A program made the position numbers and the translations under genes. Of a DNA stretch of 45,900 nucleotides, positions 1-26,941 are shown one piece after another (the stretch's first letter is position 1; each line of letters begins with the position of its first letter). This stretch comes from Bacteroidota bacterium (lineage in GTDB: Bacteria; Bacteroidota; Bacteroidia; UKL13-3), in contig JANMIV010000180.1 in NCBI GenBank assembly GCA_031375995.1, forward strand, positions 1-45,900. The letters are read 5' to 3'. Under the pieces are notes generated by a model, which worked only from the letters and a program-made list of their open reading frames with translations, had not been told where the DNA came from and did not search any database.

Positions 1-2430
1 TCACCTTCATTGGTAGCAGGACAGCCAAGTACAGTTCCAGTAACGGTAACGAATATTGGTAACGCACCTACAACAGGTATAATTACGACGACAATTACTT
101 TACCAACAGGCACAAGTGCACCAGCAACTTTTACAAGCAACGGCAATACTTGTACAACAAGTGGTCAAACTGTAACGTGTACCAATCCTGGTCCTTTATC
201 TACTACAAGCCCTACAAATAGTACATTGATTAATGTACCTGTAACGGCTGCGCCAAGTATTGTGGGAACAAATCCTGGTCCATTTGCGGCAATGCCAAGC
301 ACACCAGGAGAAACAACTACGGCTAATAATCCAGCTGCACCAATGACACCAACTATGCCAGTTGTAGCAGCACCAGCACCTGATTTAGTAACAACAATTG
401 GACAACCTTCACCTTCATTGGTAGCAGGACAGCCAAGTACAGTTCCAGTAACGGTAACGAATATTGGTAACGCACCTACAACAGGTGTAATTACGACGAC
501 AATTACTTTACCAACAGGCACAAGTGCGCCAGCAGGCCCATTTGTAACCAATGGCAATACTTGTACAACAAGCGGTCAAACGGTAACTTGTACTAATCCT
601 GGTCCTTTGACAACTACTGCACCAAGCAACAGTACAGTAATGAATATACCTGTAACGGCTGCACCAAGCACCGTAGGAACTAACCCTGGACCATTTGCGG
701 CAACGCCAAGTACACCAGGCGAAACGACAACAGGTAATAATACTGCACCGCCAATGATACCAACAAACCCTGTTATCTCAGCAGCTGCACCAGATTTAGT
801 AACAACTATTGGAGCTGTTTCGCCTTCAATGGTAGTTGGTCAAATCAGTAATTTACCAGTGACGATAACTAATATTGGTACTGCGCCAACAACAGGTACA
901 GTTTCGACAACAATTACTTTACCAGCAGGAATTTCAACACAAACTTTGTTTGTAACAAACGGCTATACTTGTAGCACTTCTGGTCAAACAGTAACTTGTT
1001 TTTCAAATACACCATTGTCAAATGTAGCACCTAACAATGCTGCACTTTTACAAATACCAATTACACCAGCAGCAAGTATAGTAAATACGACACCCGTATT
1101 TAATGCAAATACATCAGGTGGTGGAGAACCAGCAGGAAATACAACAAACAATGCTGCTCCTCCAACAACATCAGGAACTGTATCGCCAGTCCCAGCACCA
1201 GATTTGGTAACGACAATTGGTCAGCCATTGACACCATTCGTAGCGGGTTCTCCAAGTAATGTACCAGTAACAATCAAAAATCAAGGGAATGCGCCTGACA
1301 ATGGCCCAATTACTTCTAATATTACGTTGCCAGCAGGATTTAGCACACCAGCTATTTTCTCGCCATCAGCAGGAACTACTTGTTCGACAACAGGTCAAAA
1401 TATAAGTTGTACAACAGCAGGCCCATTAAGTCAAACTGCACCAAACAATACAACTACATTTAATTTACCAATAACACCAGCTGCCAGTACAATTGGAACA
1501 ATGCCACAAACAACAGGCACAACAAGTTCTCCAAATGAACCAGCTGCAAATACAGGTAACAATCCTGCAACACCAATGTCGCCAACGACACCAGTTGCAG
1601 CTGCACCAGCACCAGATTTAGTAACATTTGTTGGACAGCCAGCGACACCATTCGTGGCAGGTTCTCCAAGTAATGTACCAGTAACGGTAATTAACCAAGG
1701 AACTGCACCAGCAAATGGCCCAGTAACAACAAGCATTACTTTACCAACAGGATTTAGTGCGCCAGCAATTTTTACGTCAAATGGAAATACTTGTACAACA
1801 ACGGGACAAATTGTTTCTTGCTCTAATCCAAGTCCATTGAGTAATATTGCGCCAGGTAATTCTATGACAATACAAGTACCTGTGACACCAGCAGCTTCTA
1901 CGGTAGGAACTACGCCGCAAACTAATGCGACTACTTCTGCACCAAACGAACCAGCTACAAGCACAGGTAATAATCCAGCTACACCAATGTCTCCAACGAC
2001 ACCAGTGGCAGCTGCACCAGCACCAGATTTAGTAACAACTATCGGACAACCATTGACACCATTCGTAGCAGGTTCTCCAAGTATCGTTCCTGTAACAGTA
2101 GCTAATATTGGTTCTGCACCAGCGAATGGTCCAATCAATACTACGATTACTTTGCCAGTAGGCACGAGCGCACCAGCGAGTTTCTCGCCAGTGGCAGGAA
2201 CAAGTTGTGCAACAACAGGTCAAACAGTATCTTGTACAACAACAGGTCTTTTGAGCCAAACTGCCCCAAATAACACAATTGTTATCAATGTACCAGTAAC
2301 GCCAGCAGCAAGTACAGTTGGAACTTCTCCATCTCCATTTACTGCAACACCAACAGCACCAAACGAAACAAATACATCTAATAATGCAGCTGCTCCAATG
2401 ACGCCAACAACGCCAGTTGCACCAGCGGCA
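1..2430 (+). repeat. Intragenic tandem repeat, period 408-414 nt, six units (first unit truncated by the window edge)
   Basis: The unit consensus is 'PDLVTTIGQP.P.(L/F)VAG.PS.VPVTV.N.G.AP..G.I.T.ITLP.G.SAPA.F...G.TC.T.GQ.V.C...GPL....P.N......PVT.AAS.VGT.P'. Units 1 and 2 are very similar at the DNA level (compare nt 1-340 with 401-740). Confidence 0.9.
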
Positions 2431-3225
2431 GTAGTTAATGTAAAATTGAGTGTAAAAGTATTTTTACAAGGGGCTTATGATGCAGCAACAGGTATGATGC
2501 GTGATGATTTACGTTCAAAAGGATTTTTACCAACAGCTCAACCATACTCAGCAATGGCTCGTACTTCTTATCATACAGGTACAGAAACAACAAGCGCAGC
2601 AGCATTGGCAGCAACAGGTTCAAATGCTATCGTAGATTGGGTATTGATAGAGTTACGCACAGGTGTTGGCGCAGCGACAAGAGTAGCTACTCGTGCCGCA
2701 CTCGTACAACGTGACGGCGATGTGGTTGATGTTGATGGTGTTTCGCCAGTGACATTCAATAATCGTGCAGCAGGAGCTTACTATGTTGTGGTTACACACC
2801 GCAATCACTTAGGAGTAATGAGTGAAGTTGCCGTAGCTTTGAGCGCAACACCAGCAACTTGCGATTTTACAGGTGCTTATGATGGTTATGGTTCTAACGC
2901 CATGAGAGCAATCGGTAATTTGAACGCTCTTTGGGCAGGTAATGCAAATCATACAGGAGTGACGCATAAATCATTGATTTTTAGTGGAGCAAGTAATGAC
3001 CCAGATGCGGTTAAAAATAATGTTTTGACTGCACCAGCTAACTCTTCTGCATTAGATTTCAGTTTTGTACCAATGGGTTATCATATCGGCGACACGAATT
3101 TAGATGGCGATGTAAAATACCAAGGTACAACGAATGATTTAGATGAAATGATTTTCTTCAACGTAATGACGCATCCAGCAAATGGTGCTCCATCACCGTT
3201 GCATTTGATTACTGAAAATCATTAA
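1..3225 (+). CDS. 3' portion of a giant secreted repeat protein (5' end outside the window): six ~137-aa DUF11/CARDB-like Ig-fold repeats, then a ~265-aa C-terminal beta-rich domain ending in dockerin/EF-hand-like loops
   Basis: The frame is open from nt 1. The track starts at an internal TTG at 10, but nt 1-9 encode SPS and continue the repeat 'SPSLVAGQPSTVPVTVTNIG'. Repeat boundaries 'PDLVT(T/F)(I/V)G' fall at nt 379, 790, 1198, 1612 and 2023. The C-terminal domain (nt 2431-3222) shares long motifs with the C-terminus of the 29219..44806 product. Stop codon at 3223-3225. Confidence 0.85.
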   Translation, partial: SPSLVAGQPSTVPVTVTNIGNAPTTGIITTTITLPTGTSAPATFTSNGNTCTTSGQTVTCTNPGPLSTTSPTNSTLINVPVTAAPSIVGTNPGPFAAMPSTPGETTTANNPAAPMTPTMPVVAAPAPDLVTTIGQPSPSLVAGQPSTVPVTVTNIGNAPTTGVITTTITLPTGTSAPAGPFVTNGNTCTTSGQTVTCTNPGPLTTTAPSNSTVMNIPVTAAPSTVGTNPGPFAATPSTPGETTTGNNTAPPMIPTNPVISAAAPDLVTTIGAVSPSMVVGQISNLPVTITNIGTAPTTGTVSTTITLPAGISTQTLFVTNGYTCSTSGQTVTCFSNTPLSNVAPNNAALLQIPITPAASIVNTTPVFNANTSGGGEPAGNTTNNAAPPTTSGTVSPVPAPDLVTTIGQPLTPFVAGSPSNVPVTIKNQGNAPDNGPITSNITLPAGFSTPAIFSPSAGTTCSTTGQNISCTTAGPLSQTAPNNTTTFNLPITPAASTIGTMPQTTGTTSSPNEPAANTGNNPATPMSPTTPVAAAPAPDLVTFVGQPATPFVAGSPSNVPVTVINQGTAPANGPVTTSITLPTGFSAPAIFTSNGNTCTTTGQIVSCSNPSPLSNIAPGNSMTIQVPVTPAASTVGTTPQTNATTSAPNEPATSTGNNPATPMSPTTPVAAAPAPDLVTTIGQPLTPFVAGSPSIVPVTVANIGSAPANGPINTTITLPVGTSAPASFSPVAGTSCATTGQTVSCTTTGLLSQTAPNNTIVINVPVTPAASTVGTSPSPFTATPTAPNETNTSNNAAAPMTPTTPVAPAAVVNVKLSVKVFLQGAYDAATGMMRDDLRSKGFLPTAQPYSAMARTSYHTGTETTSAAALAATGSNAIVDWVLIELRTGVGAATRVATRAALVQRDGDVVDVDGVSPVTFNNRAAGAYYVVVTHRNHLGVMSEVAVALSATPATCDFTGAYDGYGSNAMRAIGNLNALWAGNANHTGVTHKSLIFSGASNDPDAVKNNVLTAPANSSALDFSFVPMGYHIGDTNLDGDVKYQGTTNDLDEMIFFNVMTHPANGAPSPLHLITENH

Positions 3226-3310
3226 TTTTTTTTAAACTAAAAAAATTTAATGAATAAAATTATTTTTTTAATGGATATTCTTCTTAGCTAATTTAATAGT
3301 AAAAAGGTCA

Positions 3311-3345
3311 TTTTAAACTCCTTCCTAAAATGGAGGAGTTTAAAA
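3311..3345 (+). terminator. Strong AT-rich hairpin downstream of the 1..3225 gene; possible terminator or regulatory stem
   Basis: Arm 3311-3324 (ttttaaactccttc) pairs with 3332-3345 (ggaggagtttaaaa) over 14 bp including one G.T. The loop is 3325-3331. Only a short T stretch follows (tggctttt), so a terminator function is not certain. Confidence 0.35.
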
Positions 3346-3383
3346 TGGCTTTTAAGAAGAATATTTTATCAATATACATTAAA

Positions 3384-4220
3384 ATGAAAAAGAATATTTT
3401 TAAATCAATACTTATCGCAAGCGGACTTACTTTGAGCATGGCATCTGCTCATGCTCAAGTACAGTTCAAGGTGGAGCGCATGGGCGAAACCAACAATTTT
3501 ATGGTATATGCAGTTTCTTCTGAAACGTATGAAAATCCTAAAAACCTTATTTCCACAGCACAAGTAACGCTTGTTGCGCCTACACGTGATTTTCAGTTGG
3601 ATAAAATTGTAAATTTATATCCTGACGCAAAATGGCGTGTAAATGGTCGTACTGATGCACCAAAAGAAAATCCTAACCAAGATTATATTTATTTTGGTTT
3701 AGAAAATTTAGGTACAGGTGCGTTGAAATTTAAAAAAGGTACAGAAACACCTTTATTTTTAATTCAAGCTAAAACTTGCGAAAGCAATATCAGTTTGATG
3801 GATAACAAAAAAGATCCATTTATTTTTCCAAATTCTCGACAAATCAATGTAGGCAATCAGATTACTATTTTAGGTGCTGGTGGCGATGCGTTTAGAGGAA
3901 ATGTGAAAGACAAACAATCGGCAAATTGTTTGAAATCAAAAGTTGATTTAGATCCTTATGCTATTCGTATTTCACCGAATATCACGCAAGGTGGCTCTGT
4001 AAAAGTTGAATTTTTTAAAAATGATAAAGACAACGAAAAAGCAGAACTTATTATTTATGATGCTACGGGTCGTATGACAGTTTTGCAAAGTATTAGTGCA
4101 AAAAAAGGGTACAACAGTGTAGATGCAGATGTTTCGCAATTTCCAAATGGTACTTATTTCATGTCATTGAGAGGCTTACGAGAAGAGCCTTTGACTGCAA
4201 GATTGGTCATCTCAGAATAA
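3384..4220 (+). CDS. Small secreted protein: signal peptide, one copy of the shared ~160-aa N-module, and a T9SS type-A C-terminal sorting domain
   Basis: The track ORF is 3330..4220. I prefer ATG 3384 because MKKNIFKSILIASGLTLSMASAHA|QVQ is a canonical signal peptide, whereas ATG 3330 and 3345 lie in the hairpin 3311-3345. The module QVQFKVERMG...DYIYFGLENLG...PLFLIQ...DPFIFP...INVGNQITILG parallels the modules of 4642..22818. The last ~85 aa (ISPNITQGGSVKVEFF...IIYDATGRM...FPNGTYFMSL...ARLVISE) fit the Por_Secre_tail/TIGR04183 pattern. Confidence 0.8.
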   Translation: MKKNIFKSILIASGLTLSMASAHAQVQFKVERMGETNNFMVYAVSSETYENPKNLISTAQVTLVAPTRDFQLDKIVNLYPDAKWRVNGRTDAPKENPNQDYIYFGLENLGTGALKFKKGTETPLFLIQAKTCESNISLMDNKKDPFIFPNSRQINVGNQITILGAGGDAFRGNVKDKQSANCLKSKVDLDPYAIRISPNITQGGSVKVEFFKNDKDNEKAELIIYDATGRMTVLQSISAKKGYNSVDADVSQFPNGTYFMSLRGLREEPLTARLVISE

Positions 4221-4299
4221 ATCCAATATAGGGTTTAACAGCAGATGGTTTAGCCTTACCCAACTTTACGACTAGGGTAGGGAAGGGTAAGCTACTGTC

Positions 4300-4464
4300 T
4301 TAGGGACTACGTAACAAATAACTTAACAAGTCGGCTTGTTATCTTACGCCAATACTTCGTTAAAAATACTCGTCGATGCGCTGCGTCGCCTGCGTTTTTT
4401 GCCTCGTCTTAGCATAAAATAACTGCGCCTTGGTTGCTAACTTATTTATTACATAATCCCTTAA
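4300..4464. repeat. Long imperfect inverted repeat (hairpin) in the spacer upstream of the 6058-aa gene; candidate structured RNA (minus strand), MITE-like remnant or inverton
   Basis: Arm 4300-4330 pairs with 4433-4464 at 26 of 31 positions with one bulge. Inner segment 4338-4349 pairs with 4412-4423 at 10 of 12 positions. The 62-nt apical region 4350-4411 is locally GC-rich (tcgtcgatgcgctgcgtcgcctgcg). Confidence 0.5.
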
Positions 4465-4641
4465 TGCTGGAAAATCTTTTTTTATAGTAAGAGTTGTAGT
4501 AATCAATTAAAGTAAAGAATTAAACAAAACGCTTTTTTGGTGTGGGAGCTAAAAAAGTATTTTTAAAACTAAAAAAAAGTATGATTTATCGGGCTAAGAA
4601 AGCTCCATAAACCATTTGATTTATTTCAAAAAAATATAGAT

Positions 4642-7600
4642 ATGAAGAAGCTGTTACAATCTTTATGTTGGTGGTCACTTATGCTTATGCTGTCTTTTGC
4701 AGCAAACGCACAAGTCCAGTACAAAATACAATACAATACCTCATCGCAACGCTACGAGGTTTTTATGAAACCTTTGGTAAGTTACTCTGGTGCGCAAGCC
4801 TACACGGGTTCGGCACAGGTAACGCTTGTAGTTCCTACGGGTAATTTTACGCCTACGGGTCTGCAAAGTCAATTTGGAGCGTGGAACTTGGATAATGCAA
4901 TTGCTCGCCATCCAATCGAAAATCCAAATTTTGATTATATTTCCTTTTATATGCCTGCAACGGTAACAGGGATAAATTACGTCAATGGCGTAGAAATGCC
5001 TTTGTTCACTTTTACAAACTCGGGCTCTTGTATTGGTGGTATTAATTTAATAAATAATGCTACTGATCCATTTTTTCCTTCTCCAATAACGGGAACAAAT
5101 TCAAAAAATATCAATGTTGGTAATCAAATTTCTATTTTTGGTTATCAAAATAACTTGTTGGCAAATGCTTGGCAAAGTAACTACGGTGCAGCAGCTCCTT
5201 GTAGTACGTCGCCATCTTGCGCTATTCAATACCAAATCGTTAAAACAGGAGCTACGTATCAAGTAAATATGATACCAAATGTGACTTATACAACTGTTGG
5301 CAATATTACTGCTACACAGCAAGTTACGCTCAAAGTTCCTACTGGTTTGGTTTATACCAACCTTGTTTCTTTGACAAGTGGAGCAAACTATACACAAGGT
5401 TCTCGTATAAATGCGCCTTCGCAAGCGTTAGGAAGCGATTATATTTTGTTTAATTTGGGTAATTTAGGAACAAGTGCCTTGACTTATACCAATGGCACAA
5501 GTGTTCCTTTATTCAAATTTGATGTAGCAGGCAACTGCTCGGGCGATATTGCTTTTATGCCTAACAACGACCCTTTTACAAGTAATACTTCTTACAATTC
5601 TAAGCAGCAAATTACAGTATTTGGTTATGGGCAACCTGATGCTCCGATTTGTTTTTCGGGTTCAGGTTCAGTGCCTTGTACCAATGCACCGCCAGCGAGT
5701 TGCGGATTGGAATACGAAATTGAGCGTTTGTCGAATGGCAAATTTCAAGTTTCGATGACACCAAAAGTAACTTACACTGCGCCAAATAATACCACTTCTA
5801 CACAACAAATTACATTGAAAGTCCCAACAGGTTTTCAATACACAGGTTTGACAAGTATAAACGCTGGTGCAAATTATGTACAAGGTTCACGTATAAATGC
5901 ACCTTCACAAGCACCAGGTTTTGATTATATTTTGTTCAATTTGAGCAATTTGGGAACTACCGCCTTGACTTATACCAATGGCGTAAAAGTACCTTTGTTC
6001 ACTTTCGACAAATCAGGCGTTTGCAACAATGAGGTCATCGCTTTGATGCCAAACACAGACCCTTTTACAACAAATACTTCTTTTAATTCTAAACAACAAT
6101 GTACAGTGTTGGGCTACGGACAGCCTGATATTCCAATTTGTTTGAAAGGCACAGGTTCTGTAACTTGTACTCCGCCTGCGGCAAGTTGTGGTACAGAATA
6201 CGAAATTGAGCGTTTGCCAAACGGCAAATTTCAAGTTTCTATGACACCAAAAGTAACTTACACTGCGCCAAATAATACGACTTCTACGCAGCAAGTTACA
6301 TTGAAAGTCCCAACAGGTTTTCAATACACAGGTTTGACAAGTATAAATGCTGGTGCAAATTATGTACAAGGTTCACGTGTAAATGCACCTTCACAAGCAC
6401 CAGGTTTTGATTATATTTTATTCAATTTGAGCAATTTGGGAACTACCGCCTTGACTTACACCAATGGCGTAAAAGTACCGTTGTTCACTTTCGACAAATC
6501 AGGCGTTTTTAACAATGAGGTCATCGCTTTGATGCCCAATACAGACCCTTTTACAACAAATACTTCTTTTAATTCTAAGCAACAGCTTACTGTGTTAGGT
6601 TACGGACAGCCTGATATTCCAATTTGTTTGAAAGGCACAGGTTCTGTAACTTGTACTCCGCCTGCGGCAAATGCTTGCCAAATCAAGTACGAATTAGAAA
6701 CAGTTAATGGTTGTGCATACCAAGTCTCAATGACCCCTAACATTACGTGGACAACATCAGGAAATATCACAAAAGCGGCAAAAGTTACCCTTCGTGTTCC
6801 TCACGGTTGTTTTACGGTAGCAGACTTAACAAGCTTCAACTTTGGCGCTTCTTTTATAGTAGCAAATACTGCGCTTGCACCTTCTGACAATCCAGCCTAC
6901 GATTATATTTGTTTTACCATGACTACTGTTCCGACAGTTGGTATTCCATATATTCAAGGGCAAAAAGTACCGCTATTTACTTTTAAAAATGGTGGAACTT
7001 GTTGTGGTAATATTGAATTAATGCCAGCAACAGATCCTTTCGCAAACGGAAATACATTGAACCAAAATTTTGACCAACATTGGGAAACTTCAGGTACAGG
7101 CTCGGCAGGTGTTGAGCCTTGTATTATTGGAAATCCACAACCTTGTATTGCGCCTACTGGTTCAACTATTTTAGGTACAGATAAAACAATTTGTCAAGGT
7201 CAATCTACACAATTGAATGTAACAGGAACTTTTGTTGCTTACAATTGGTCAGGTGCAGGTTTGAGCGCAACAAATGTTTCAAATCCAACTGCGACACCAA
7301 CCGCTACTACGACTTATTACGTGACTGCAACAACCGCTTCGGGTTGTGCTATCAAAGATGATATTATCGTAACAGTAACTCCTTTACCAATTTTCACAAG
7401 CGTAACACCTTCTGCATCAACATCTTGTGTTTCAAGTAATGGTTCAATTACTATTGCAGCAAGTGGTACAGGAACACTCGAGTACAGTATTGACAATGGC
7501 ATATCTTGGCAATTGTCAAATGTATTTTTGGGTTTGAGCGCAGGTTCATATACTACAAAAATTCGCAGACAAGGTACGACTTGTGAAGTGGCAAATCCTT

Positions 7601-10600
7601 CAAATCCAGTTGTGATTACGACATCTGGCGCACCAACTATTGTAAGCGTAACAGGTTCAAATCTGAGTTCTTGCACTATCAATAATGGTCAAATTAGTAT
7701 CGTAGCAAGTGGTTCGGGTGGACCTTTCCGTTACAGTATTGATAACGGAGCGACCTACCAAACATCGCCATTTTTTGCAAGTCTGAGCGTAGGAACGTAT
7801 GCTATTAAAGTTACAGATGCAAGCGGCACTTGTGCTTCAACGGCTTCAACTGTAAATTTAACAGCTCCAAGTACACCAACTATTGTAAGCGTAATTCCTT
7901 CTAATACAACAGATTGTAATTTAAATAATGGTTCTATTTTAATAAATGCAACTAATGCAACGGCAGCAATGGAATACAGTTTAGATGGCTTTAATTGGCA
8001 AACATCAAACGTATTTAATGGTTTAGCGGCAGCGTCATATTTAGTAAGAGTAAGAACTGCAAATACATCTTGTGCAGTGACAGCAGCAGCTCCAATTGCT
8101 GTAAATATGCCTGCAATGCCAACTGTTCAAACTGTTACAACAGTTACTCCTTCTACTTGCGCTTTGGCAAATGGTTCTATCAATATTGCAGCGTCAGGTG
8201 GAAATGGAAATTTTGAATACAGCATAAATAATGGTGCAACATGGCAGTCTTCGCCTAATTTTGCTAACTTAGCATCAGGTACCTATTTTGTAGCAGTACG
8301 TACTTCGGGTACGGCTTGTTCAAAACCTTTTGCAGGAAATCCTGTGGTATTAAACATGACACAAGCACCAGCGATTACAGCTTTGGCAAAAATAAATACA
8401 AGCAATTGTGGTGTAAATGATGGTCAAATTGTAATAACAGCAGCAGGAAATGGCACATTGGAATACAGCGTAAACAATGGTACAACTTTCCAAGCGAGCA
8501 ATACTTTTTCAGCATTAGCTGCAGGAACTTACAACATTATGGTAAGAACAACGAACAATACAGCTTGTACTTCGGTTGTTCCAAACTGTGTAATTCCTAC
8601 GCTTACACAACCTTCGGTAAATAATTTTTCAGTAACACCTACAAGCGATTGCGCTCAAAATAATGGTACAATTAGTATCAACGCATCAGGCGGTGTTGCT
8701 CCTTTACAATACAGTATAAATGGTACAACTTGGCAATCAAGCAATGTCTTTGTCGGTGTAGCAGCAGGATCATACACTTTACGTGTTCGCAATGCAAATG
8801 GTTCTTGTGCAAATACAGGCAATACTCAAGCAGTAATCAGCGCACCAGCTTCGCCAAGTATAACCTCAGCAACAGCAACAGGCGCAACTTGCGGACAAAC
8901 GAATGGTTCAATTACAATTATTGCCAATTCTCCTTCGGGCGTTAGCGGCTTACAATATTCTATCAATAATATTGCTTGGCAAACGTCAAATATTTTTACC
9001 AACGTAGCGGCAGGAACTTATACGGCTTATGTTAGAAATGCCAGCGCAACTTGTACTGCAACTTCTACTTCAACTGTTACCGTTCTTCAAACAGCTGGTG
9101 CAAATATTACAGCGGTTAGCATCACAAATTCAAATACTTGTGCATCGCCAAACGGTATAATTTCAATTACAGCAAATGGTGGAATAACGCCATTGTCATA
9201 CTCTATTGATGGTGGAATAAATTTCCAAACATCAAATACATTCAATAATGTAGCAGCTGGAATGTACGAAATTGTAGTAAGAAATGCCAGTGGAACTTGT
9301 CCAGCGGTACTTTCTCCAATTACAGTTACAGCTCCGACAGCACCAAGTATTGTAACTACTATCAGTACCAATCCTTTGGGTTGTAATCAGGGTAATGGCT
9401 CTATACAAATTTTAGCAAATGCGTTGCCTTTGGGTTTAGGAGGATTATTAGAATACAGCCTTGATGGCAGTATTTGGCAAACATCAAATCTATTTAATAA
9501 TCTGACAGGTGGTTCATATACGGCTCTTGCTCGTAATAGCGGTAATACAACGTGTACTACAAGTGCCAATGCACCAGTAGTTTTGACACCTAACGCAACA
9601 GCTCCAACGATTAGTAATATTTCAAAAACAAACCCAAGTTCTTGTGGTGCATCAAACGGTACTATTACTGTTTTAGCCTCAGGAACTGGCGGATTAGAAT
9701 ACTCTATTGATAATATTCATTGGCAAAATGCAAATTTATTCTCAAATTTAGCAGCAGGCTCATACAATGTTTTTGTTAGAAATGCCAATGGCACTTGTCC
9801 AGTGGCTTATAGCTTAAACCCTGTTGTATTAAACGTGAGTGGAGGATTATCTATCACAAATGTGAATGGTACAAATCCAAGTAACTGTGGTACAAATGAC
9901 GGTTCAATTGCAATTTCAGCAACTGGCTCAGGCGCTCCATATCGTTACTCTATCAATGGCGGCGGATCATTCCAAAATTCTTCTGTCTTTACAGGTTTAG
10001 CCGCAGGCGTTTATAATATCGTAGTGACGATGTCAAATGGAGATTGTCCAACGACTGCACCTGTATTGACATTAACTGCACCATCAGCACCTACTTTGGT
10101 AAGCAGCGCAAGCACAAATCCAACAAGTTGTGTAAATAATGACGGTACAATTACTATCAATGCAATAGGAGGAACAGCTCCTTACGAGTATAGTTTAGAC
10201 GGTAATATTTGGCAAAATTCAAATGTATTTGTAGGTTTAGCAGCAGGTTCGTACACTACTCGTGTACGCAATGCCAACGCTTCGTGTGTAGTTTCATCAT
10301 CAAATGCAATTATACTGATAGCACCAGCATCACCTACGATTTCAAGTTTTTCAAAGACAGACCCGAGTTCTTGTAGTACAGCAAATGGCTCTATTACAAT
10401 TATAACGAGTGCATCAAATGTAGAATTTTCAATAAATAATACGACTTGGCAAGCATCAAATATTTTTTCGGGTTTAAGCGGTGGTTCATATACAGCATAC
10501 ATTCGCAATAATAACGGTACTTGTAAAACAACATACAATACGCCAATTGTTTTGAACGCAGGTGGCGCACATAGTATTGCTAATGTAAGTGTAACAAATC

Positions 10601-13600
10601 CAAGTGATTGTGCTAAAAACGATGGTCAAATCAGCATCACAGTAAATGGTGCAGGCGGACCATTCCGATACAGCATCAACAATGGTACTACATTTCAGTC
10701 ATCGCCAATGTTTAGTGGTTTGGCAGCAGGTTCTTATAGTATTGTTGTAACAGATGCAAGTGGAGTTTGTTCTGCATCATCACCGTCAGTGGTTATTACA
10801 GCACCAAGCGCACCAAGTATTTTATCCGTAACACCTACACCTACATCAGATTGTAGTTTGTCAGACGGAGAAATAAATGTTACAGCAACGTTTGTTGCGC
10901 CTTCTACAGCGGGACAATACAGTATAGATGGTATCAATTGGCAAACTTCTAATAATTTTACAAACGTAGCTTCGGGCGCATATTTAGTACGTGTACGCAA
11001 TGCAAACGGTTCTTGTACTGTTGTTGGAAATACACCAATTATCGTAACAACACCAGCACAAGCAACTATAACAAACGTTAGCTCAACAGCTCCTGCAACT
11101 TGCGGTCAAAATACAGGTACAATTACCGTGTCAGCAACAGGTGGCGCAGGTCAATTAGAGTATTCTATTGACCAAACCAACTGGGGTACAAATACGGTGT
11201 TTACAGGTTTAGCATCAGGTACTTATTATGTTTTTGTTAGAAATCAAGACAACTCTTGTTCAAAACCTTACGGTGGAAATCCAGTAGTTATTAATGCTAC
11301 GGGCGCACCTCAAATTACAAATGTAACTAAAACAGTACCAACGAATTGTAACGTAAATGATGGTAAAATTATCATCACAACTTCTGCGTCTTCAAGTGTT
11401 TTAGAATACAGTATCAATAATGGTGCAAACTACCAAGCGTCTAATACGTTCAACGGATTAGCGTCAGGTACTTATAACATAACAGTAAGAATTGTTGGCG
11501 GAAATACAACTTGTACATCAAGTGTTCCAAATTGTGTAATCCCAACACTAACTCAACCCAATATTTCAAACGTAATCGCTTCAAATCCAAGTGATTGTGC
11601 TTTAAATAACGGAACAATTACCATCGTTGCAAACGGTGGAGTAGCTCCTTTACAATATTCTATCAATGGTTCACAATGGCAATCGAGCAACGTATTTTCA
11701 AATGTAGCCGCAGGGTCTTACAGTGTAAAAGTACGCAACTCAAATGGCTCTTGTGAATATACAAATACAGCAGCAACGGTTTTAGTTCAACCATCTGCAC
11801 CAAGCAATGTAACAGCTACTACGACACCTGCAACTTGCGGTCAAACAAACGGTTCTGTTACAGTAAGTGCAACGGCTTCTTCGGGAGCAGAATATTCTAT
11901 CAACGGAATTCAGTGGCAAACAGCAACTTTATTTAGCAATGTAGCTGCAGGAACTTATACTGTTTTTGCAAGAAACACCAACGGAACGTGCCAAACACAG
12001 GGTGTTTCTACTGCAACAGTTTCACAAACAGGTGGTTCGAATATTTCAAACGTAACAGTTACAAATTCAGTTACTTGTGGTTCAAATAGTGGTCAAATCG
12101 TAATCAATGCGAATGGAGGAACTGCACCTTTGCAATACTCAATCAATGGTGGTCAAACTTACCAAGCGTCTAATATTTTCAATAATTTAGCAGCAGGTAC
12201 ATATAATATTGTAGCAAGCAACAGCAATGGAACTTGTTCAGCAGTATTAAGCCCAATTACTTTGATAGCACCTACTACACCAAATTTAGTAGCTGCAATA
12301 ACTTCAAATCCAACAGCTTGTAACCTTAACGACGGTACTTTGACTGTTTTAGCAACAGGAAATGGAGGTTTGGAATACAGCACAAACGGTACTTCTTGGC
12401 AAACGTCAAATGTATTTACAGGTTTGGCAGCAGGCAGCTACATCGTAAGAGTTCGTGCAGCAGGCAGCGCAACTTGTGTTACAAGTGCAAGTACGCCAAG
12501 TGTTTTGGTAGCACCAACAGCACCAAGTATTACAAACGTAAATTCAACCAATCCATCTTCTTGCGGAGGTACAAATGGTTCTATAACGGTTACAGCTTCG
12601 CCAAGTCAAAATGTGCAATACTCTTTAAATGGTATTGTTTGGCAAAATACAGGTATTTTTAGTGGTTTAGGAGCAGGCTCTTATACCGTCCAAATTCGTA
12701 ACGCAAACGGTACTTGCTTAGTAACAAATCCTTCACAAGTAGTATTAAATGCCACGGGAGGTCCTCAGATTGCAACCACATTGGTCGTAAATTCTGACGA
12801 TTGTAATATTTTAAATAATGGAAAAATAACTGTTTTAGCAAATGGTGGAGTAGGGCAGTTGCAATACAAAATCAGTAGCGCAAACGCTTATCAAATTTCA
12901 AATATTTTTACCAACTTAGCAGCAGGAAATTACAGCATCACAGTAACTGATGCGTCAGGTCTTTGCCAAACGACAACAACAGCAACTTTGACAGGCCCAA
13001 CTGCGCCACAAACGCCAGTAGCATCTGCAACGCCTGTGACAAATTGTGCTATGCAAAATGGTACGATTACAGTAAGCGCACCAATAGGTGTAAATTACGA
13101 ATACAGCATCAATAACGGACTTTCTTGGCAAACAGCTACTACATTTACTAACGTAGCAGCAGGAAACTACATCGTAACAGTACGTACCAGAAATACAAAT
13201 TGTAAATCAGAAAGTACAGTTATCAATGTTGGAAGTCCAGCAGTACCAACTTTTGGTACGGTTGATGTGAACTTTGGAATTTCAGGTTGTAGTATTACAA
13301 ACGGTACAATCGTTGTAAATACTTCAAATACAGGCAATTGGGAATATTCTATAGACAATGGTTTGACTTGGCAAGCAAGCAAAACATTCAGCAATGTAGC
13401 GCAAGGCTCTTACAATGTAATGGTACGTAGTGTAGGCACGCCTATCGCTTGTGCTGTGGCTTATGTAGGAAATCCTATTGCTTTAACTGCACCGAAAGCA
13501 CCAACTGTTTTAGCTATTTTAACCGAACAAGCAACAGTTTGTAACGGTACAGACGGTAAAATTACAATTACAGCAACAGCTAACTCTACGTTAGAATATT

Positions 13601-16600
13601 CTATCAATAATGGAACAAGTTATCAAGCGTCAAACGTTTTTGCAAATTTAAGCGCAGGAACTTATACGATTTTGGTACGTGATGCAGCTTCTTGTACAAG
13701 TAGCGGCGGACAAGTTGTTATTTCAGGCAGCACAACGCCAACTGCAATTGCAGTAGCAACAGCGCAAATGTCTGATTGTAACAAAAACGACGCAACCATT
13801 ACAGTAACAAATGTAATAGGCGGAACAGCTCCTTACGAATACAGCTTAAATGGTACAACTTGGCAAACTTCTTCTACATTTACAAGTGTAGCAGCAGGAA
13901 ATTATACCGTTCGTGTACGAAATGTAGGCTCAAATTGTGTTTTCACAAACTCAACATCTACTGCAATCAACACTTTAAACGCACCAACTATCAATAACAT
14001 TACACCAACAAGTGCAACTTGTGGTCAAAATAATGGACAAATTGTAGCGTCGGGAAGTGTAGGAGCGTTATTTTCTATTGATGGTATAAACTACCAAAAT
14101 ACAGGAACTTTTGCTAATCTCGCATCAGGTACTTATACGGTATTTATTCAAAATGCAAATAATACTTGTACGACAGCAGCAGCAACACCAATTGTGTTGT
14201 CTTCTGTATCAGCACCAACGATAAGCAGCGTAACAACTACCAATCCAACAGAATGTAACTTAACAAATGGTACAATTACGATAAACGCAACTTTCCCTTC
14301 GGGAGCAGCAGGTGCATCGTATTCTATAGACGGAGGTTTAAATTTCCAAGGTAGCAATGTCTTTAATAACATCGCTGCTGGTACTTATCCTATTGTAGTA
14401 AAAGGTTCTGGCGCAAGCGCAGCTTGTCCTGTAACTTACAGTCCTGTAAAAATAACCGCACCAAGCGCACCTCGTATTGTGGTCGTTGTTAGTACAAACC
14501 CAACATCTTGTGTTAATGACGGAAAAATATCCGTAATTGCAAACGACGGTACAGCACCATTACAATATAGCTTAGACGGTATTACTTGGCAAGATAGCAA
14601 AGATTTTACAGGTTTAGCAGCAGGTTCATACACAGTTCGTGTACGTAATTTGAATACTTCTTGTGTAAAAACGGCTAATAATGCAACTGTTTTAGTAGCA
14701 CCTAACGGCATATCAATCAGCAATGTTGCTAAGACAGACCCTACAACTTGTATCGCATCAAACGGTACGATAACAATTACAGCAGGAGTTGGAGGAGCAC
14801 AATATTCTATTGATAATATTCACTGGCAAACGGCAAATGTATTCAATAATTTGCCAGCAGGAGCTTATACAGCTTACATTCGTAATGCTGATGGTACTTG
14901 TGAAACGCCTTACTCAGCAAATCCAATTGTACTCAATGGTACAGGAGCACCAGTTATTACAGCAGTTCAAAAAACAGATGTAACAGACTGTAATTTAGCA
15001 AATGGTTCTATTACCATTCAAATTGCAGGTAGTGTTGCACAATTCAAATACAGTATTGACAATGGCGCTACTTACCAATTGTCACAATATTTCTCAGGTT
15101 TGACCGCAGGAACTTACAATATAAAAGTAACTGACTTGGCAGGAAATTGTCCAGCAGTTATTCCAAATATGGTAGTTTCTTCGCCAATTGCTGCCAATAT
15201 TACGGCAGTAAATGCAGTACCTACAAGCAACTGTGGCGTAAACAATGGCTCTATTTCAATAACAGCTACATTTAGCTCAGGAAATGGAGGATTGTACAGC
15301 ATTGACAACGGTGCAAACTGGACAAGCAGCAACGTATTTAATAATTTAGCCGCAGGCTCATATATTATTAAAGTAAAAAATGCGGACGGCAAATGTGAGC
15401 AAATTTATCCAACAGCAGTAGAAGTAAAAGAGCCTACAAAACCAACTTTCGTAAGCGTAACACAGGTAGATCCTTTGGCTTGTGGACTAAACACGGGTTC
15501 AATTACCGTCGCAGCAACGGGTGGAACAGGTACTTTTGAATACAGTATAAACGGTACAACTTGGCAAGCAAGTGGTTCATTTACAAATCTTACAGCAGGA
15601 GCATATACTGTTGCTGTTCGTAATGCAGGAAGCAATTGTCCTGTTCAATACGCAGGTTTAGTAAATATTGCAGCACCTCCTGCACCAAGTATTATAAGTG
15701 TTTTGTCTAAAAATCCTACTACTTGTAGTGGTAATAATGGCGAAATAAAAATTACAGCAACTTCTGCTACATCAGGTAACGGATTAGAATACAGTATCAA
15801 CGGTTCAAACTATCAAAGTTCAAATACCTTTACAGGTTTATCAACAGGTACTTATAATATTTTAGTTAGAAATGTAGGTGGCACGTGTCCAGTTACTTAT
15901 CCAGCTGTGAGTATTACAGCACCAGTAGCACCAATAATTAATGCTACAATTCCAACAGCAGTTTCTGACTGCAACGGCAATGACGGTAAAATTATCGTAG
16001 GCGCATCGTCAAGTTCCGCTTTGGGATTAGAATACAGCATCGATGGTACAAATTGGTCGGCTTCTAATTTCTTAATGAATTTAGTGGCAGGAACATATAC
16101 TGTTCGTGTTCGTGATTTAGGTACAACTTGTATTGCGACCTCAGCACCTGTAACAGTTTTACAACCTAATAACCTAACTGTTATTAATAATGTTGCAAAA
16201 ATAAACCCAACAGGTTGTGGTAAAAATGATGGTTCAATTACAATTACAGCAACGCCTAACGCTGGCGTAATGTACACTATTGACGGTATCAATTGGACTA
16301 CAAACAATACTTTCAACAACTTAGCAGCAGGTTCTTACACGATAAAAGTTAGAAATGCAAATGGTACTTGTCCAGTGTCTTACAGCGCACTTACAATTTT
16401 AACGCCAGGGCCAATTTCTCCACAAATTACAAATGTAACTATTACAAATGTAAGTGATTGCGCTGCAAATGACGGAAAACTTGAAATCACCGCAACATTC
16501 GGTGCTACAACAGGAGCGTTAAATAAATACTCTATTGACGGTGGTGTAACGTTCCAAAGTTCAAATACTTTTACAGGTTTAGCAGCTCGATATTATGATA

Positions 16601-19600
16601 TTGTAGTTCGCAACAACGATGGTTCTTGCTCTACTTTATTTATTCCTGCAGAAATTAAAAAACCTGCAACACCAGCTTTGGTAACAGCTATTTTGACAAA
16701 ACCGTCAGATTGCTCTATTCCAAATGCTAAAATTACAGTATTGGCTTCGGGTGGTATTAGCCCTTTACAATACTCTATTGACAATGGTGCAACTTGGACA
16801 ACAAATAATGTATTCGGTGGTCTTGCGCCAGGGTATTACTACGTAAAAATTAGAAATGCCAATGGTACTTGTACGCAGACTTACGGACCAAATCCTGTAA
16901 AATCTTGTGAATTTGACTTAGCATTGCGTAAAACGCTTACCAATAAAGCAGATAGCGTAACTCGTTTAGGTCGTGATATTGATTTTACAATTAAAATATT
17001 TAACCAAGGTGCAGTAGCGGCAAAAGATATAGAAGTAGTAGATTATTTACCAAAAGGTACAGTATTAAGTCCGAAAGATCAAAATGGTTGGTCGATGTTG
17101 CCACAAGTAGCAGGCACAACCGTGAACTCAAATACGATTTTTGATCCTTCATTGCCTTTAAAAGCAAAGAAAATTATTACGCAAACTATTCAACCAGGCG
17201 ATAGCGCAGTAGTTCAAATTAAGTTAAGAATTATGTTTGGTGGTGCTTTTGCAAAATTAACAAATGTTGCCGAAATAGCAGGAGCAAAAGATGAAGCGGG
17301 CGTATTCCGTCAAGATGGAGACTCTACTCCTGATGATACAAAAGGTAACGATAAAGAAGTAGATGATGCAATAGACGATAAAGGTATCGTAGATGAAGAT
17401 GATGAAGATCCAGCACCTTTCAAATTAGATGATTATGATCCGCATGGTTACATTTATTGTGACAAAGCAGGTACACTGATGAAAGGTGGTAAAATTCAAT
17501 TGCTTACTGCACCAGTAGGTGGAGCAATTTACTTTGCAACTGATAACAATGGTATTCCAATTGATGGTCGTAATGGTGTTTATCAATTCTTTACAAACGG
17601 TGTTCCTGGTAATTACAACATTACTTATGTAAATCCAAACGGCTATACATTGAGTACGATGGTATTGCCACAAGCAGGTTCATTTAATCCAGCAGGTACA
17701 GACAATACAGCAATTGATAAAGACGGTATAGCAAATAACATCGTAGTTTTAGGTTCTTTGGAGCAAGCAGATACTTTATCAAATAAAGCACCTGTGGCAA
17801 ACCCTTATTATTTGTCATTTACTTTCAATGCAAACGAAACAACTATTATTTCTCATAATAATATTCCTGTTTCTTGTGCTTGCGTAACAGCAACAGTTTG
17901 TGCAGATACCAATGGCGATGGCGCACCAACAGCAGGCGAGCCAGGCATAAACGGTGTTACCGTAGAACTATACAGTTGTACAACAAACGCCTTATTACAA
18001 ACAGCCGTTACTTCAAACGGAGGTAAGTATAAATTTAGCGGTTTATTGGCAGGGAACTATAAATTGAAATTTACTTTAGCAAATGGTTATAGCTATGCAA
18101 CAAACGCAAGTGGACAAACAGTAGGTATTGATAATCAAGGAAATACGCCTTGTTTTGTCTTAGACTACGCAGGTTGTCAAGAAAGAACAGCTTGTTTGAA
18201 GGCTTGCCCAACGATTACAATTTCTCCAAACGTTACTATTTGTGCTGGTTCAAGCACCGTATTAGCAGCAACAGGTGGAAATGGTACATTCTCATGGTCG
18301 CCAGCAGCAGGATTAAATGCGACAAGTGTCGCAAGTGTAACAGCTACGCCAAACGCAACAACAGTTTATACGGTTACTTCGACAGGCGCAGGTTGTACAT
18401 CAATAGCTTCTGTGACAGTAACAGTCGTAACGCCACCTGCAAGTAATTTTACAATTAATGTAAATCAACCTTCAACTTGTACTAATGCGAATGGTTCTAT
18501 TACCGTAAACGCAACAGGCACAGGCTTGGAGTACAGCATAAATGATGGAAATACTTGGCAAGCGTCAAATATATTTAGTGGCTTAGCCTCAGGTTCTTAT
18601 GCGGTAAAAATACGTAATGCAGGTTCTCAATGTGCTGTAAGTTACGCAAGCAATCCAGTAGATTTAACACCAGCAAGCGCACCAAATATTACAAATGCAA
18701 CAGCTGTAAATCCTACAAATTGTACAACGCCAAATGGCTCTATCAACATCACCGCAAACGGTGGTTCAGGAGCTTTGCAGTACAGTATCAACAATGGACT
18801 AAGCTACCAAACAAGTAATTTATTTACAAATTTGGCAGCAGGTACGTATCAGATAAAGGTTAAAAACGGCAATGGTTCTTGCGAAAGCTCTTATCCAAAT
18901 GTTGTTTTAACGAACAATATACCTGTCATTAACGCTGTAAATGTCGTTTCAGATTGTGCAAACAACAACCGTAGCATTACGATTTTAGCTTCGGGCGGTG
19001 TTTCTCCTTTGGAATATAGCATCAACGGTGGTACAACTTGGACAACCAATAATGTATTTACAGGTCTTGCACCAGGTACTTACAATGTAGCAGTTCGCAA
19101 TTTTAACGGTACTTGTGTTGTAAATTACACACAAAACCCGATTACGATGTGTATCTACGATTTGGCTTTAAGCAAAAAATTAGCAGCAGGTCAATCAGGT
19201 TTAGTACGTTTGGGCGATATTGTAAACTACGAAATTACAGTTATCAATCAAGGTGGAAATCCTGTGAAAGATGTACAAGTAGTGGATTATTTGCCACAAG
19301 GAATGCAACTTTCTCCAGCAGGTAACAATGGTTGGGTCCAAACAAGCACAGATATGGTAATAAATACCATTTCTTCTACCATTGCAGCTGGTCAAAGTGT
19401 AGTGCTGAATATGGCAGTTCAATTAGTATATGGTAGCCCAAATACTTCTTTGAAAAACGTTGCGGAGATAAAATCAATGAAAGACGTAAATGGCAATCCT
19501 GTAACGGATATCGACTCTACGCCAGACATGATAAAAGGCAACGACAACGAAAAGGACAATGTTATCAACGAAAATGGTAAAAATAACCCAAGCGACGATG

Positions 19601-22600
19601 AAGATGACAGTGATTTTGAAGATATTTTACTCGATAATTTTGACCCAAGCGGTTATATTTATTGTGAAAAAACAGGTAAAATAATCACAGGTGGAAAGCT
19701 CAAATTGGTTTCTGCACCAGCAGGTGGAGATGTATTTTTCTCAACAGATGCCAATGGTATTTTATTGGATGGTTCGACAGGTATGTATCAAGTATTTACC
19801 AACGGTGTAAGTGGAAATTATACATTTACTTACGTACACCCGAACGGTTATCCATTAAGTACAACTTGTTTGCCAGAAGCAGGTTCATTTAATCCAAAAG
19901 GAAAAGATGGCGATGCTGTGTATGACAAAGACGGCGCTGTAAACGGTACAATTCACTTAGGTTCAGTAGCAAACAACGGTTACATTGCAAATAAATCTTG
20001 TGCAGCAAACAAATATTTCTTGTCATTTACTTTAGAAAAAGACGAAAAAGTATTGATTGCGACCAACAACCTTCCAGTATCTTGTGCTATTATTTCAGGT
20101 ACTATCAAGGACTGCAAAACACAAGCAGGAGTAAGCGGTATGGATGTAAAAATCTACGATTGTAACTCTACAACAGGTGTAGCATTTGCTTTTGGAAAAA
20201 CTGATGCCAACGGAAATTATATTTTTGATGGCTTAAAAACAGGTAAGTATAAAATACAAATCGTAGGTGCTTCGGGACAAATTATCCAAGGTGGTAAGTT
20301 TGACCAATCGGGAACTTCGGCTTGTATAGACATCAAATACGGCGAAATGATTATGGACTTGAACGCTTGTTTAAGCACTTGCCCGACCATCAACAACGTA
20401 TTGACTGTACAACCTTGGTGTCCTAAAAACAATGGTGTAATCATCATTGATGCAGTTTGCCAAGGCGATTTAGAATACAGTATTGATGGTGGAAAAACGT
20501 ATCAGCACCTCAACGCATTTATGAATCTTGCGCCAGGTTCTTACACGATAAAAGTAAAATCGTCAGGTTGTGAGCAAGATTACAAGAGTGTAATTGTTCT
20601 CGCTTGCGAAAACGATAACACAGGCGGAAAAGGTTCTATCTCTGGAAAAACATTCAAATCTTGTAGCGATAGCGGCATCAAAGGTGCAAACAAAGGTTTA
20701 GCAAACGTGAAAGTGACCTTGACTTCAAGTACAGGTACAACTCAAAACGCTATAACAAACGCAACAGGTTTATACAACTTTACAAACGTAGAAGCTGGTG
20801 CGTACTCGATTACTTTTGAAAAAGCAACAGGTTTTGATTTTGCAAAACAAAATCAAGGCAACGATGACGCAAACGATAGCGATGTAGATGCTTCTGGAAA
20901 AACAACAATTAACGTAGCAGCAAACCAATTGTTAGACAATGTTGATGCAGGTTATAAAGATGTTCAAGCACCAGTTCTGACTTTTATCCATCCTTTATTG
21001 GTAGGTAAAAAAGACGGCGAAACCGTCTATATGGAATGTGGTTTTGAAGAAGTTTTAAAAGAAATGCACGCTACGGCAAAAGACAATTGTGACCCGAATC
21101 CAAGCATTAAAATGGAAGACGGTTTGGCAGTCGTGAGCAAAGAATGCAGCAAAGATGGATTTTTGGTAAAAATGTATTGCGGTTGGATAGCAACAGACGA
21201 GTGTGGCAATAAGTCGCAAACTTGGTTGTACATCGTGGTTCGTGATACACAAGCTCCAACTTTGTCAGGCGTTCCTGCGAGCACAACAATTGGCGAAAAA
21301 GATGTTGTTCCTGCTGCTGCAAATGTGACAGCAACGGATAAGTGTGATACAGGTGTAAAAGCTGTTTTTGCAGAAACCAAAAATGGAAATATCATCACAC
21401 GCACTTGGACAGCAACCGACCAATGTGGCAACAAAACAACTGCTACACAAGTCATTACGATTAAAAAAGACAACGCTGGCCCTTGTACCATTAGTGTAAC
21501 ACCAGTTCCAGTAACTTATGCAGCTTCATGTGCGGGTAAAGACGGCAAGGCGAAAATAACGCCAAGCAACTACACCTACAAATGGGCAGATGGTGTTATC
21601 GGAGATACTCGTTTAGATTTGGACAAAGGAACATACAGCGTAACGGCAACAGATGCCAATGGTTGTACTGCAATTTTTAACGTAATCATAAAAGACGGTT
21701 GTACGTTTACAGGTTTAGCATTTGCTAAAAAAGGCGAAATTCGTCAAGTAGCTTGTGGAAATCCGCAAAACGAATATTGTTTAGATTTTGATTTTGCAAC
21801 TTTCGTAACAGAGTACAAATTGCTTGAAAACGGACAGCCTTATGCCAATAAAATTCAGCCTTGCGTGATGCAATCACATGGAGAATACTCTCTTGCTGGT
21901 TTGATAAACGTTCCTTTGAGTGTTCAAGATTGGACAGTTGCTGGTCAGAAAGTGATATTTAGCTTTGCTAACTTAGATGATTTGGCGGCTAAAATGAACC
22001 AATACGACAGCAACGGCGGTTGGAAAATAAATGCTTTGGACGAGAAAATTTACAACGAGAATTTTGATAAAAAACGTTACGGCGACCTTACAATTGGCAA
22101 TACTAATTTGGGTGTAAAATGGATTATGCAAGCAAGTTCATTCTCTATTCCAAAAGGTATAAAACTAATGGTAAGCGGCATGGGTAAGCACGAAATTGTT
22201 TTGGCACACAAAACAAAACCTTACCAAGATACGATGCGCATACAGTTTGCTTGTACTACTCCTCAAACCTTCAATGTTATACTTGACGAAGGCGATATAG
22301 AAGGCGTGGATATTGCAACTACAGAATTAGTAGGTATAAAATGCACTATGGAACAACACGAAATAGACGGATTGAGCAATTCAGCCGAGTTCCGTGGTAC
22401 ACTTCGTGGCGCAGCATCTATGGTAATGGTAACAGGTATGCACGTCGGTGAAAAACGTACGATGTACACCATGTGCGACGAATACGGTATTTGCGATACA
22501 GCTGAAATCCGTGTTTTGGTACGTGAAAAAATAAAAGAAGAGGAAGTTGTAGATAAATACATAAAAGTATATAACGGATTTTCTCCTAACGGCGATGGTC

Positions 22601-26696: not shown

Positions 26697-26941
26697 AATT
26701 ACCTAATTATAGTAGTATATAATTAAATAATTATGTACTTTTGCACTCATATAATTACCTAATTATTTAATTACGTAATTATGTAAATCAAACAACTATT
26801 TTTTCAATTTTATAATTACGTAATTACGTAATTATGTAATTACGAATTGTTTTTAATTTATTAAAAAAATAAATTTTTTGAAACTTACATTCTGTAATTA
26901 CGTAATTACGTAATTATATAATTACATAATTACGTAATTAT
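26697..26941. repeat. Centromere-like/operator repeats (parC-like): 19 copies of the 8-bp unit NTAATTAN in five clusters directly upstream of parA
   Basis: The clusters are 26697-26720 (3 units), 26729-26744 (2), 26751-26782 (4), 26812-26843 (4) and 26894-26941 (6: gtaattac gtaattac gtaattat ataattac ataattac gtaattat). Adjacent units form the perfect palindrome TAATTACGTAATTA. The last unit contains the first two bases of the parA ATG (26940). Confidence 0.7.

Follow-up and report, generated by a model that had tools for sequence, protein, structure and literature searches.

In the clostridial type II cohesin/X-module-dockerin (XDoc) system, exemplified by the XDoc of Clostridium thermocellum CipA and the cohesins of SdbA, OlpB and Orf2p (PDB 2b59, 5k39 and 4wi0), anchoring relies on a receptor module and a C-terminal plug. 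The dockerin consensus comprises two tandem segments of about 22 aa, each with a 12-residue EF-hand-like loop (DxNxDGxxxxxD) followed by a helix, and the cohesin fold is a nine-stranded jelly-roll beta-sandwich of about 140-150 aa. The gliding adhesins SprB and RemA of Flavobacterium johnsoniae carry a type B C-terminal domain (CTD) of the type IX secretion system (T9SS) and depend on PorP/SprF, and T9SS cargo is generally thought to require a C-terminal signal of its own. Bacteroidetes have been stated to lack cohesin/dockerin, i.e. cellulosomal, components (PMC5831590), and Cytophaga hutchinsonii to possess no cellulosome (PMC11611037). The stretch of DNA analysed here (the window) comprises all of contig C266 (45.9 kb) from a metagenome-assembled genome (MAG) of an uncultured Bacteroidota bacterium. 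It bears both on the stated absence of cohesin/dockerin components from this phylum and on the need of T9SS cargo for its own signal.

The window encodes giant proteins that share two domains, a module of about 160 aa (the N-module) and a domain at the extreme C-terminus (the C-domain). In every locus examined, a gene that combines an N-module with a C-domain lies directly before a small gene encoding an N-module and a T9SS type A CTD. The stretch is best explained as part of a kit of four surface-protein genes carried by a Rep3/ParA plasmid. We propose, as a plausible reading that falls somewhat short of probable, that N-modules and C-domains dock onto one another, with a SprB-like giant and the small protein as socket bearers held by the T9SS, a protein encoded across the contig edge as an adaptor, and a second giant of 5195 aa as cargo.

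Gene content of the surface-protein locus

The genes and domains concerned are as follows.

1-2418, plus strand: 3' part of the edge gene, CARDB-like repeats of about 135 aa forming a stalk (Pfam CARDB E 1.1e-10; colinear with the orthologues P0047 and P0048)
2419-3222, plus strand: C-domain of the edge protein, with a beta-sandwich at about 2431-2910 followed by a tail in which a D/N-rich loop-helix unit occurs twice
2941-3000 and 3091-3138, plus strand: loops of this tail, with helices at about 2998-3027 and 3142-3168
3384-4220, plus strand: small protein of 278 aa, in which a signal peptide precedes a single N-module (3456-3929) and, at about 3996-4217, a T9SS type A CTD (PF18962, TIGR04183)
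4642-22818, plus strand: SprB-like giant of 6058 aa, with a signal peptide, five N-modules, SprB/SdrD_B/DUF11 repeats and a T9SS type B CTD (22564-22815)
4711-5202, 5224-5682, 5707-6171, 6193-6657 and 6679-7146, plus strand: the five N-modules of this giant (hidden Markov model (HMM) E 1e-59 to 1e-71)
29219-44806, plus strand: second giant of 5195 aa, with DUF11 and CARDB-like repeats and a C-domain (43958-44797), no N-module and no T9SS CTD
44951-45898, plus strand: 5' part of the edge gene, with a signal peptide, a divergent N-module (45029-45514; HMM E 4.7e-53) and the first CARDB-like repeat, running off the contig

An earlier note on this DNA, made from its letters alone, had described a division of labour, in which proteins with T9SS signals carry one or five N-modules and proteins without such a signal end in a dockerin-like domain. 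We found this division to hold for every complete N-module protein examined, each of which ends in a type A CTD, a type B CTD (for example as signal peptide, two N-modules and CHU_C, in 470-640 aa) or a C-domain. In the SprB-like giant, the five modules, of 154-165 aa each, follow right behind the signal peptide. Its SprB repeats (PF13573, 223.8 bits, 10 stretches) place it among SprB-type gliding adhesins, and its C-terminus matches the type B models TIGR04131 (68.8 bits, 3.2e-19, cut-off 35) and CHU_C/PF13585 (97.5 bits, cut-off 27), so that the type B signal and five modules assigned to it earlier are borne out. Module copies 3 and 4 (5707-6657) are nearly identical, indicating a recent tandem duplication, and relatives carry from five (L004) to seven (L001) copies, indicating that the number of putative sockets differs between strains.

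The small protein passes both curated type A cut-offs in a C-terminal match (PF18962, 30.5 bits, E 4.6e-7, cut-off 27; TIGR04183, 25.9 bits, E 7e-6, cut-off 23), in agreement with the type A signal and single module first ascribed to it. It belongs to a conserved family of 40 homologues, mostly of 274-295 aa and nearly all with PF18962; since homologues measure 277-279 aa, position 3384 is likely its true start. An AlphaFold2 model built from 35 sequences (predicted local distance difference test (pLDDT) 87) shows two all-beta sandwiches, the N-module and the CTD.

For the edge gene, the left open reading frame (ORF) spans 1-3225 and contains the same CARDB-like repeats as the right one. The right part is 68% identical to, and colinear with, residues 1-315 of P0047 (1537 aa), and the left part is 79% identical to its orthologue; P0048 measures 1673 aa. 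At the orthologous loci L001 and L004, one gene encodes signal peptide, N-module, CARDB-like repeats and C-domain in a single frame. Joining the two contig ends restores the conserved order of a gene ending in a C-domain, the N-module/CARDB/C-domain gene, the small gene and the giant. Thus, given this order and the colinearity with both ends of the orthologues, the two fragments very probably form one gene, in line with the earlier suggestion of a single gene carrying both the module and a dockerin-like end.

The C-domains of the edge protein and of the second giant are 42% identical over about 265 aa (E 1e-51). Both of these proteins without a T9SS CTD end in a common domain, called dockerin-like in the earlier note, with two D/N-rich loop-helix units. 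The annotated start of the second giant places about 100 residues with several hydrophobic segments (29219-29520) before a signal-peptide-like sequence, "MVMAACLGNASKIYA", followed by QA, and its true start codon is uncertain.

A conserved gene pair and parallel clusters with cohesins

We identified the same gene pair in 16 loci, comprising the window, four metagenome or relative clusters (L001/L002, L003, L004/L005 and G241) and 11 species genomes, mostly Saprospiraceae MAGs and one Emticicia MAG, which were collected using the small-protein alignment. In 16 of 16, the small N-module/CTD gene is immediately preceded by one that ends in a C-domain, and this upstream gene starts with an N-module wherever its 5' end is on the contig. 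Several clusters contain extra C-domain genes with no N-module, such as the second giant of the window and an 815-aa ORF in G241. The two domains are also joined within single proteins: 28 of 260 C-domain proteins contain one to three N-modules, and the minimal fusion, of signal peptide, N-module and C-domain, measures 456 aa (P0208, P0209). Proteins built of N-modules and a C-domain alone contain two or three copies of the module and, in a further search, up to four (P0305).

The strongest argument that the N-module may work like a cohesin comes from parallel clusters in three other genomes (G227, G327 and G092). In these, a Pfam-positive cohesin lies directly N-terminal to a homologous C-domain within one protein, and the adjoining genes encode a signal peptide, a cohesin and a type A CTD, in 273-543 aa. 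The C-domain sandwich is homologous to that of the window (E 1e-34 to 1e-66), and in G092 it is followed by an expanded tail ("DVNMNGQVKYSGSSNDRSVIL"), as in the window. The N-module therefore stands in the two positions that PF00963 occupies there, N-terminal to the C-domain and N-terminal to the type A CTD, which would suggest functional analogy rather than homology between the two modules.

The strictly conserved order and adjacency of the two-gene unit may be read in another way, namely that the small protein is a carrier, which attaches in the periplasm to the C-domain of the protein encoded just upstream and escorts the folded complex through the T9SS, so that the giants without a CTD would be exported in this manner and anchoring would be secondary. 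C-domain proteins have Sec signals and neither a CTD nor a lipobox, and a piggy-back crossing of the outer membrane by way of the small protein is one possibility for them; the T9SS moves folded substrates. However, we know of no described case of hitch-hiking through this system, many genomes with C-domains have no N-module or cohesin partner, and a full C-domain occurs in the gammaproteobacterium Thiothrix lacustris, from a group without a known T9SS. We therefore consider such a carrier role quite improbable.

Structure and distribution of the C-domain

The C-domain consists of a beta-sandwich and two calcium-loop-like/helix units, and defines a huge unannotated family found at the very C-terminal end of many kinds of secreted Bacteroidota protein. 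In an AlphaFold2 model from a 61-sequence alignment (pLDDT 95.7, predicted template-modelling score 0.93), the sandwich spans residues of about 5-150 and the tail contains two helices, each preceded by a D/N-rich loop (N175-D194 before helix 194-203, and D225-D240 before helix 242-250). In a Foldseek search of the PDB, type II XDoc chains were at the top (4wi0_B, 4u3s_B and 5k39_B), with 2b59_B and 5g5d_B lower, and transthyretin-like sandwiches ranked after them. These five XDoc chains among the top 20 neighbours match the two-part arrangement of a sandwich and a duplicated loop/helix, with weak scores (E 0.011-0.16, target-normalised template-modelling (TM) score 0.40-0.56, root-mean-square deviation 5.6-6.7).

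We found no match of the tail or of the entire C-domain to solved dockerins in PDB sequence and profile searches, and no match to the T9SS CTD models TIGR04183, TIGR04131 or PF18962; Pfam and NCBIfam models gave no match to the domain either. In the window, the tail loops are of the form DxNxDGxVxYxGxxND, with 16 residues, and the units lie about 50 aa apart. Homologues of the sandwich elsewhere continue into canonical 12-residue dockerin loops, in G166 ("GDFNMDGQGSSFDF"), G205 ("GDFDGNGIINYADF"), G136 (the pair "GDVNQDGVVDFQDL...DLNGDSFTEIDDV") and, on another contig of the same MAG as the window (G000:C350:2394-2825, L018), in the pair "DADSNTYIDSDDF...DFDLDGDVDVDDF". These canonical-tail relatives score 10-17.5 bits on Dockerin_1, below its cut-off of 22.9, and two proteins of G136 match nearly the full profile at E 0.005-0.007, under the gathering score. 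On our reading, the family joins an X-module-like sandwich to a dockerin-type tail, and the window holds an expanded-loop variant. "Dockerin-like" is thus a fair description of the modelled structure, although the domain does not score as a member of the Pfam dockerin family (PF00404).

The protein on contig C350 is an ORF of more than 2255 aa and a further protein of the MAG with this sandwich near its end; we found no cohesin or N-module elsewhere in the MAG. In G136 (L055; G136:C1:3258000-3276000), five enzymes (Exo_endo_phos, GSDH, BNR/sortilin and others) form an array, and each of them ends in the sandwich and a near-threshold Pfam dockerin. On the flanks of the array lie T9SS type A CTD proteins whose N-terminal modules match neither cohesin nor the N-module; these modules may represent a third type of socket.

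When 1.84 billion cluster representatives (clusters at 50% identity) were scanned in full with HMMER, C-domain relatives turned up in 9952 clusters at E<=0.001; at the stricter E<=1e-10 the number is 7357. The proteins range from about 220 to 6763 aa in length, and the family, for which Pfam and NCBIfam have no model, is a candidate for a new curated one. Across 258 full-length matches, the distance from the end of the domain to the C-terminus has a median of 3 residues and exceeds 30 in only 3. The passengers are varied (Calx-beta, cadherin-like and Big_9 repeats, an M43 peptidase with a ricin domain, esterases, sortilin/BNR and TSP3 repeats), and wherever the source names the protein, the name is "hypothetical" or "hemagglutinin protein". 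The organisms named include Saprospiraceae, Flavobacteriales, Spirosoma, Runella, Psychroserpens and one Thiothrix lacustris, in the complete genome of which a 430-aa protein (P0229) has a full C-domain with the expanded tail and an N-terminal half without a Pfam match.

Within a sample of 301 genomes of the phylum, we identified the C-domain in 41, the N-module in three (G000, G241 and, marginally, G315) and the PF00963 cohesin in 90. Cohesin as a universal partner of the C-domain was rejected, as PF00963 is present in 19 of 40 C-domain genomes versus 71 of 260 others, a weak enrichment that is confounded by phylogeny.

The N-module and its architectures

The N-module is a new beta-sandwich of about 160 aa (154-165 aa), found once in the small protein, five times in the SprB-like giant and once in the edge gene. 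In most of the proteins examined, the first N-module comes immediately behind the signal peptide, and in a few the module is solely internal (P0122, P0125 and P0137). It gave no sequence match in Pfam, NCBIfam or the PDB, where a profile search returned no cohesin. The first reading, that the module is beta-rich and lacks sequence similarity to cohesins, agrees with the all-beta model of the small protein and with these searches. In the three N-module proteins of the window, the predicted mature N-terminus is Gln, with cleavage between AHA and QVQ (3453-3461), ANA and QVQ (4708-4716) and LFA and QQQ (45023-45031). Such an N-terminal Gln has been described as being cyclised to pyroglutamate in secreted Bacteroidota proteins.

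This placement mostly at the mature N-terminus, farthest from the C-terminal anchor, would suit a module that acts as a distal ligand-binding tip, adhesin- or lectin-like, with the C-domain as a general domain for surface retention or export that has another receptor; the adhesins would then share a tip and differ in stalk and anchor. The partners of the N-module are all stalk-type repeats (SprB, CARDB, cadherin-like and SdrD_B), its tandem arrays suit multivalent ligand binding, and the C-domain is spread about 100-fold more widely, occurring on many enzymes in genomes without N-module or cohesin. However, a tip function leaves unexplained why the small gene follows the N-module/C-domain gene at all 16 loci, why both positions of the parallel clusters are occupied by real cohesins, modules that dock proteins, and why some proteins consist of N-modules and a C-domain only. 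We regard it as somewhat unlikely.

Every cluster contains three diverged types of N-module, and tandem arrays are common, which could also be accommodated if N-modules bound one another head-to-head, bundling the tips of the giants with the small protein, and the C-domain had an unrelated role. We found no evidence of self-association, and the dockerin-like features and the cohesin parallel would go unused; homotypic binding of this kind appears very unlikely, and the least probable of the explanations considered here.

A tentative docking model

Under the docking reading, the N-module would serve as the socket, in functional analogy to cohesin, with the C-domain as the plug, resembling an X-dockerin. 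The T9SS would export the small protein and the SprB-like giant and keep them at the surface, where they would offer one and five sockets respectively. The edge protein and the 5195-aa giant, which have no CTD, would dock onto these sockets through their C-domains. As it would possess both a socket and a plug, the edge protein could serve as an adaptor or extend chains. The earlier note had proposed a docking system of this type for assembling the giants on the cell surface. What favours it is the general division of labour, the weak structural matches of the C-domain to XDoc chains, the canonical loops in relatives, the coupling in 16 of 16 loci, the 28 fusions, the cohesin parallel and, within the same clusters, CTD-less proteins that end in a C-domain and have no N-module (the second giant and the 815-aa ORF of G241). 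The N-module shows no sequence match to cohesin and the tail in the window none to dockerin, and the proposal is further qualified by the generic fold matches of the N-module and by the far wider spread of the C-domain.

Several observations weigh against docking, the first of them concerning the receptor. A comparison of 72 N-modules with 20 Bacteroidota PF00963 sequences gave an hhalign probability of 1%, so that homology to cohesins was rejected and no similarity is detectable. In Foldseek, the N-module matched mainly tandem immunoglobulin/fibronectin type III chains, with cohesins at rank 4 (4fl4_I, a two-domain chain) and at ranks 45-46 (6kgc_A and 6kgd_A, target-normalised TM score 0.51-0.52), in a comparison blurred by the two domains of the search model. 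The modelled fold is compatible with a cohesin-like sandwich and is not specific to it. On the side of the plug, the tail in the window has no match to Dockerin_1 (PF00404) even at E<=10, and has loops of 16 rather than 12 residues in units spaced by about 50 aa. The small protein may not be an anchor, as F. johnsoniae often releases type A CTD proteins instead of anchoring them.

The distribution is a further difficulty. Neither N-module nor PF00963 is present in 20 of the 40 other C-domain genomes, some of which (for example G205, G136 and G251) have at least eight C-domain ORFs, suggesting that the general partner of the family, if there is one, is something else. With three genomes to 41, the N-module was rejected as the universal partner of the C-domain. 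The C-domain in Thiothrix, a gammaproteobacterium, lies in a group in which we know of no T9SS. Finally, a single ancestral operon gave rise to all the N-module clusters; the 16 loci therefore represent conservation and not independent events, and co-evolution of the 16 pairs is inseparable from common descent.

A fuller version of the docking reading would make the N-module an unrecognised receptor family with the widespread X-dockerin-like C-domain as its ligand; small proteins of N-module and T9SS CTD would provide co-export and an anchor for giants without a CTD, and the five-socket head of the SprB-like giant would be a mobile scaffold with exchangeable plug-ins. We consider this whole combination unlikely.

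Plasmid context and neighbouring genes

The window is the longest contig of its MAG (2.7 Mb, 541 contigs, 88% complete), and four or five very large plus-strand genes account for about 85% of it. It also encodes a BRO-N protein, together with the following genes.

22971-23585, directly after the SprB-like giant: 2-oxoglutarate-Fe(II) (2OG-Fe(II)) oxygenase of 204 aa (PF13640 E 1.5e-20)
24591-25997, minus strand: plasmid backbone, Rep3 initiator (Pfam Rep3_N 6.7e-28, Rep3_C 1.6e-18)
26940-27590, plus strand: plasmid backbone, ParA (Pfam ParA/AAA_31 6e-19)

The contig is best read as a plasmid. Both of its ends fall within CARDB-like repeats that are 86-89% identical, and we found no exact overlap between them that would prove circularity, which is inferred from synteny. 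The N-module cluster was not found in 18 genomes of the same genus and six of the same family, and a search among 40 relatives gave no N-module match. Relatives of the cluster are mostly Saprospiraceae MAGs, and the GC content of the contig is 39%, versus 35% for the MAG. The plasmid may have been acquired horizontally, or may be mis-binned. The 2OG-Fe(II) oxygenase is a candidate that could modify the giants post-translationally, for example by hydroxylation of Asp/Asn or Pro.

We identified no PorP/SprF-like gene anywhere on the plasmid contig, including beside the type B giant, and the four PorP/SprF matches of the MAG are all on other contigs. In a chromosomal homologue of the cluster in G241 (C24; L015 15488-18376), a PorP/SprF gene (E 4e-91) and an OmpA-family gene lie directly downstream. 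PorP/SprF proved uninformative as a marker of the T9SS: 74 of the 75 genomes of the same class gave a match (E<=1e-10), as against 1 of 226 from other classes.

Significance and comparison with known systems

The C-domain constitutes an X-dockerin-like family of about 10,000 clusters without a database model, systematically paired with T9SS-CTD proteins that bear either cohesins or the N-module. If this pairing reflects binding, it would amount to a phylum-wide means of displaying signal-less enzymes and adhesins at the outer membrane, explaining their retention, and protein engineering would gain a new orthogonal plug/socket pair.

The closest relatives of the two-protein logic are the cohesin clusters of G227, G327 and G092, in which a protein of module and C-domain is likewise encoded beside a small protein of module and type A CTD. 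They differ in the module, which is PF00963 there and the N-module in the window and in the Saprospiraceae-type clusters, without profile similarity between the two.

Compared with the gliding adhesins SprB and RemA of F. johnsoniae, the giant of the window is alike in its SprB repeats and its CHU_C/TIGR04131 type B CTD. In contrast to them, it is plasmid-borne and has no sprF-like gene on its plasmid, and we saw no genes resembling sprC or sprD; five N-modules at the tip are a feature that we do not know from SprB.

The anchoring by type II cohesin/XDoc pairs in clostridial cellulosomes is similar in three respects. Both systems have a C-terminal beta-sandwich with a duplicated loop/helix unit, calcium-loop-like in the window. 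On the docking reading, both would also have scaffolds with receptor modules at the N-terminus and the plug at the C-terminus, and a separate surface-anchored protein that bears the receptor module. Unlike in clostridia, the predicted receptor of the window is the sequence-unrelated N-module, with no Pfam cohesin, and its binding is a prediction. The tail has 16-residue loops and a spacing of about 50 aa and does not match Dockerin_1; anchoring would be by a T9SS CTD at a Gram-negative outer membrane, not by an S-layer homology (SLH) domain or sortase; and the cargo would comprise giant repeat adhesins, not glycoside hydrolases. The system is best described as a putative variation on the cohesin/X-dockerin principle that is new and coupled to the T9SS.

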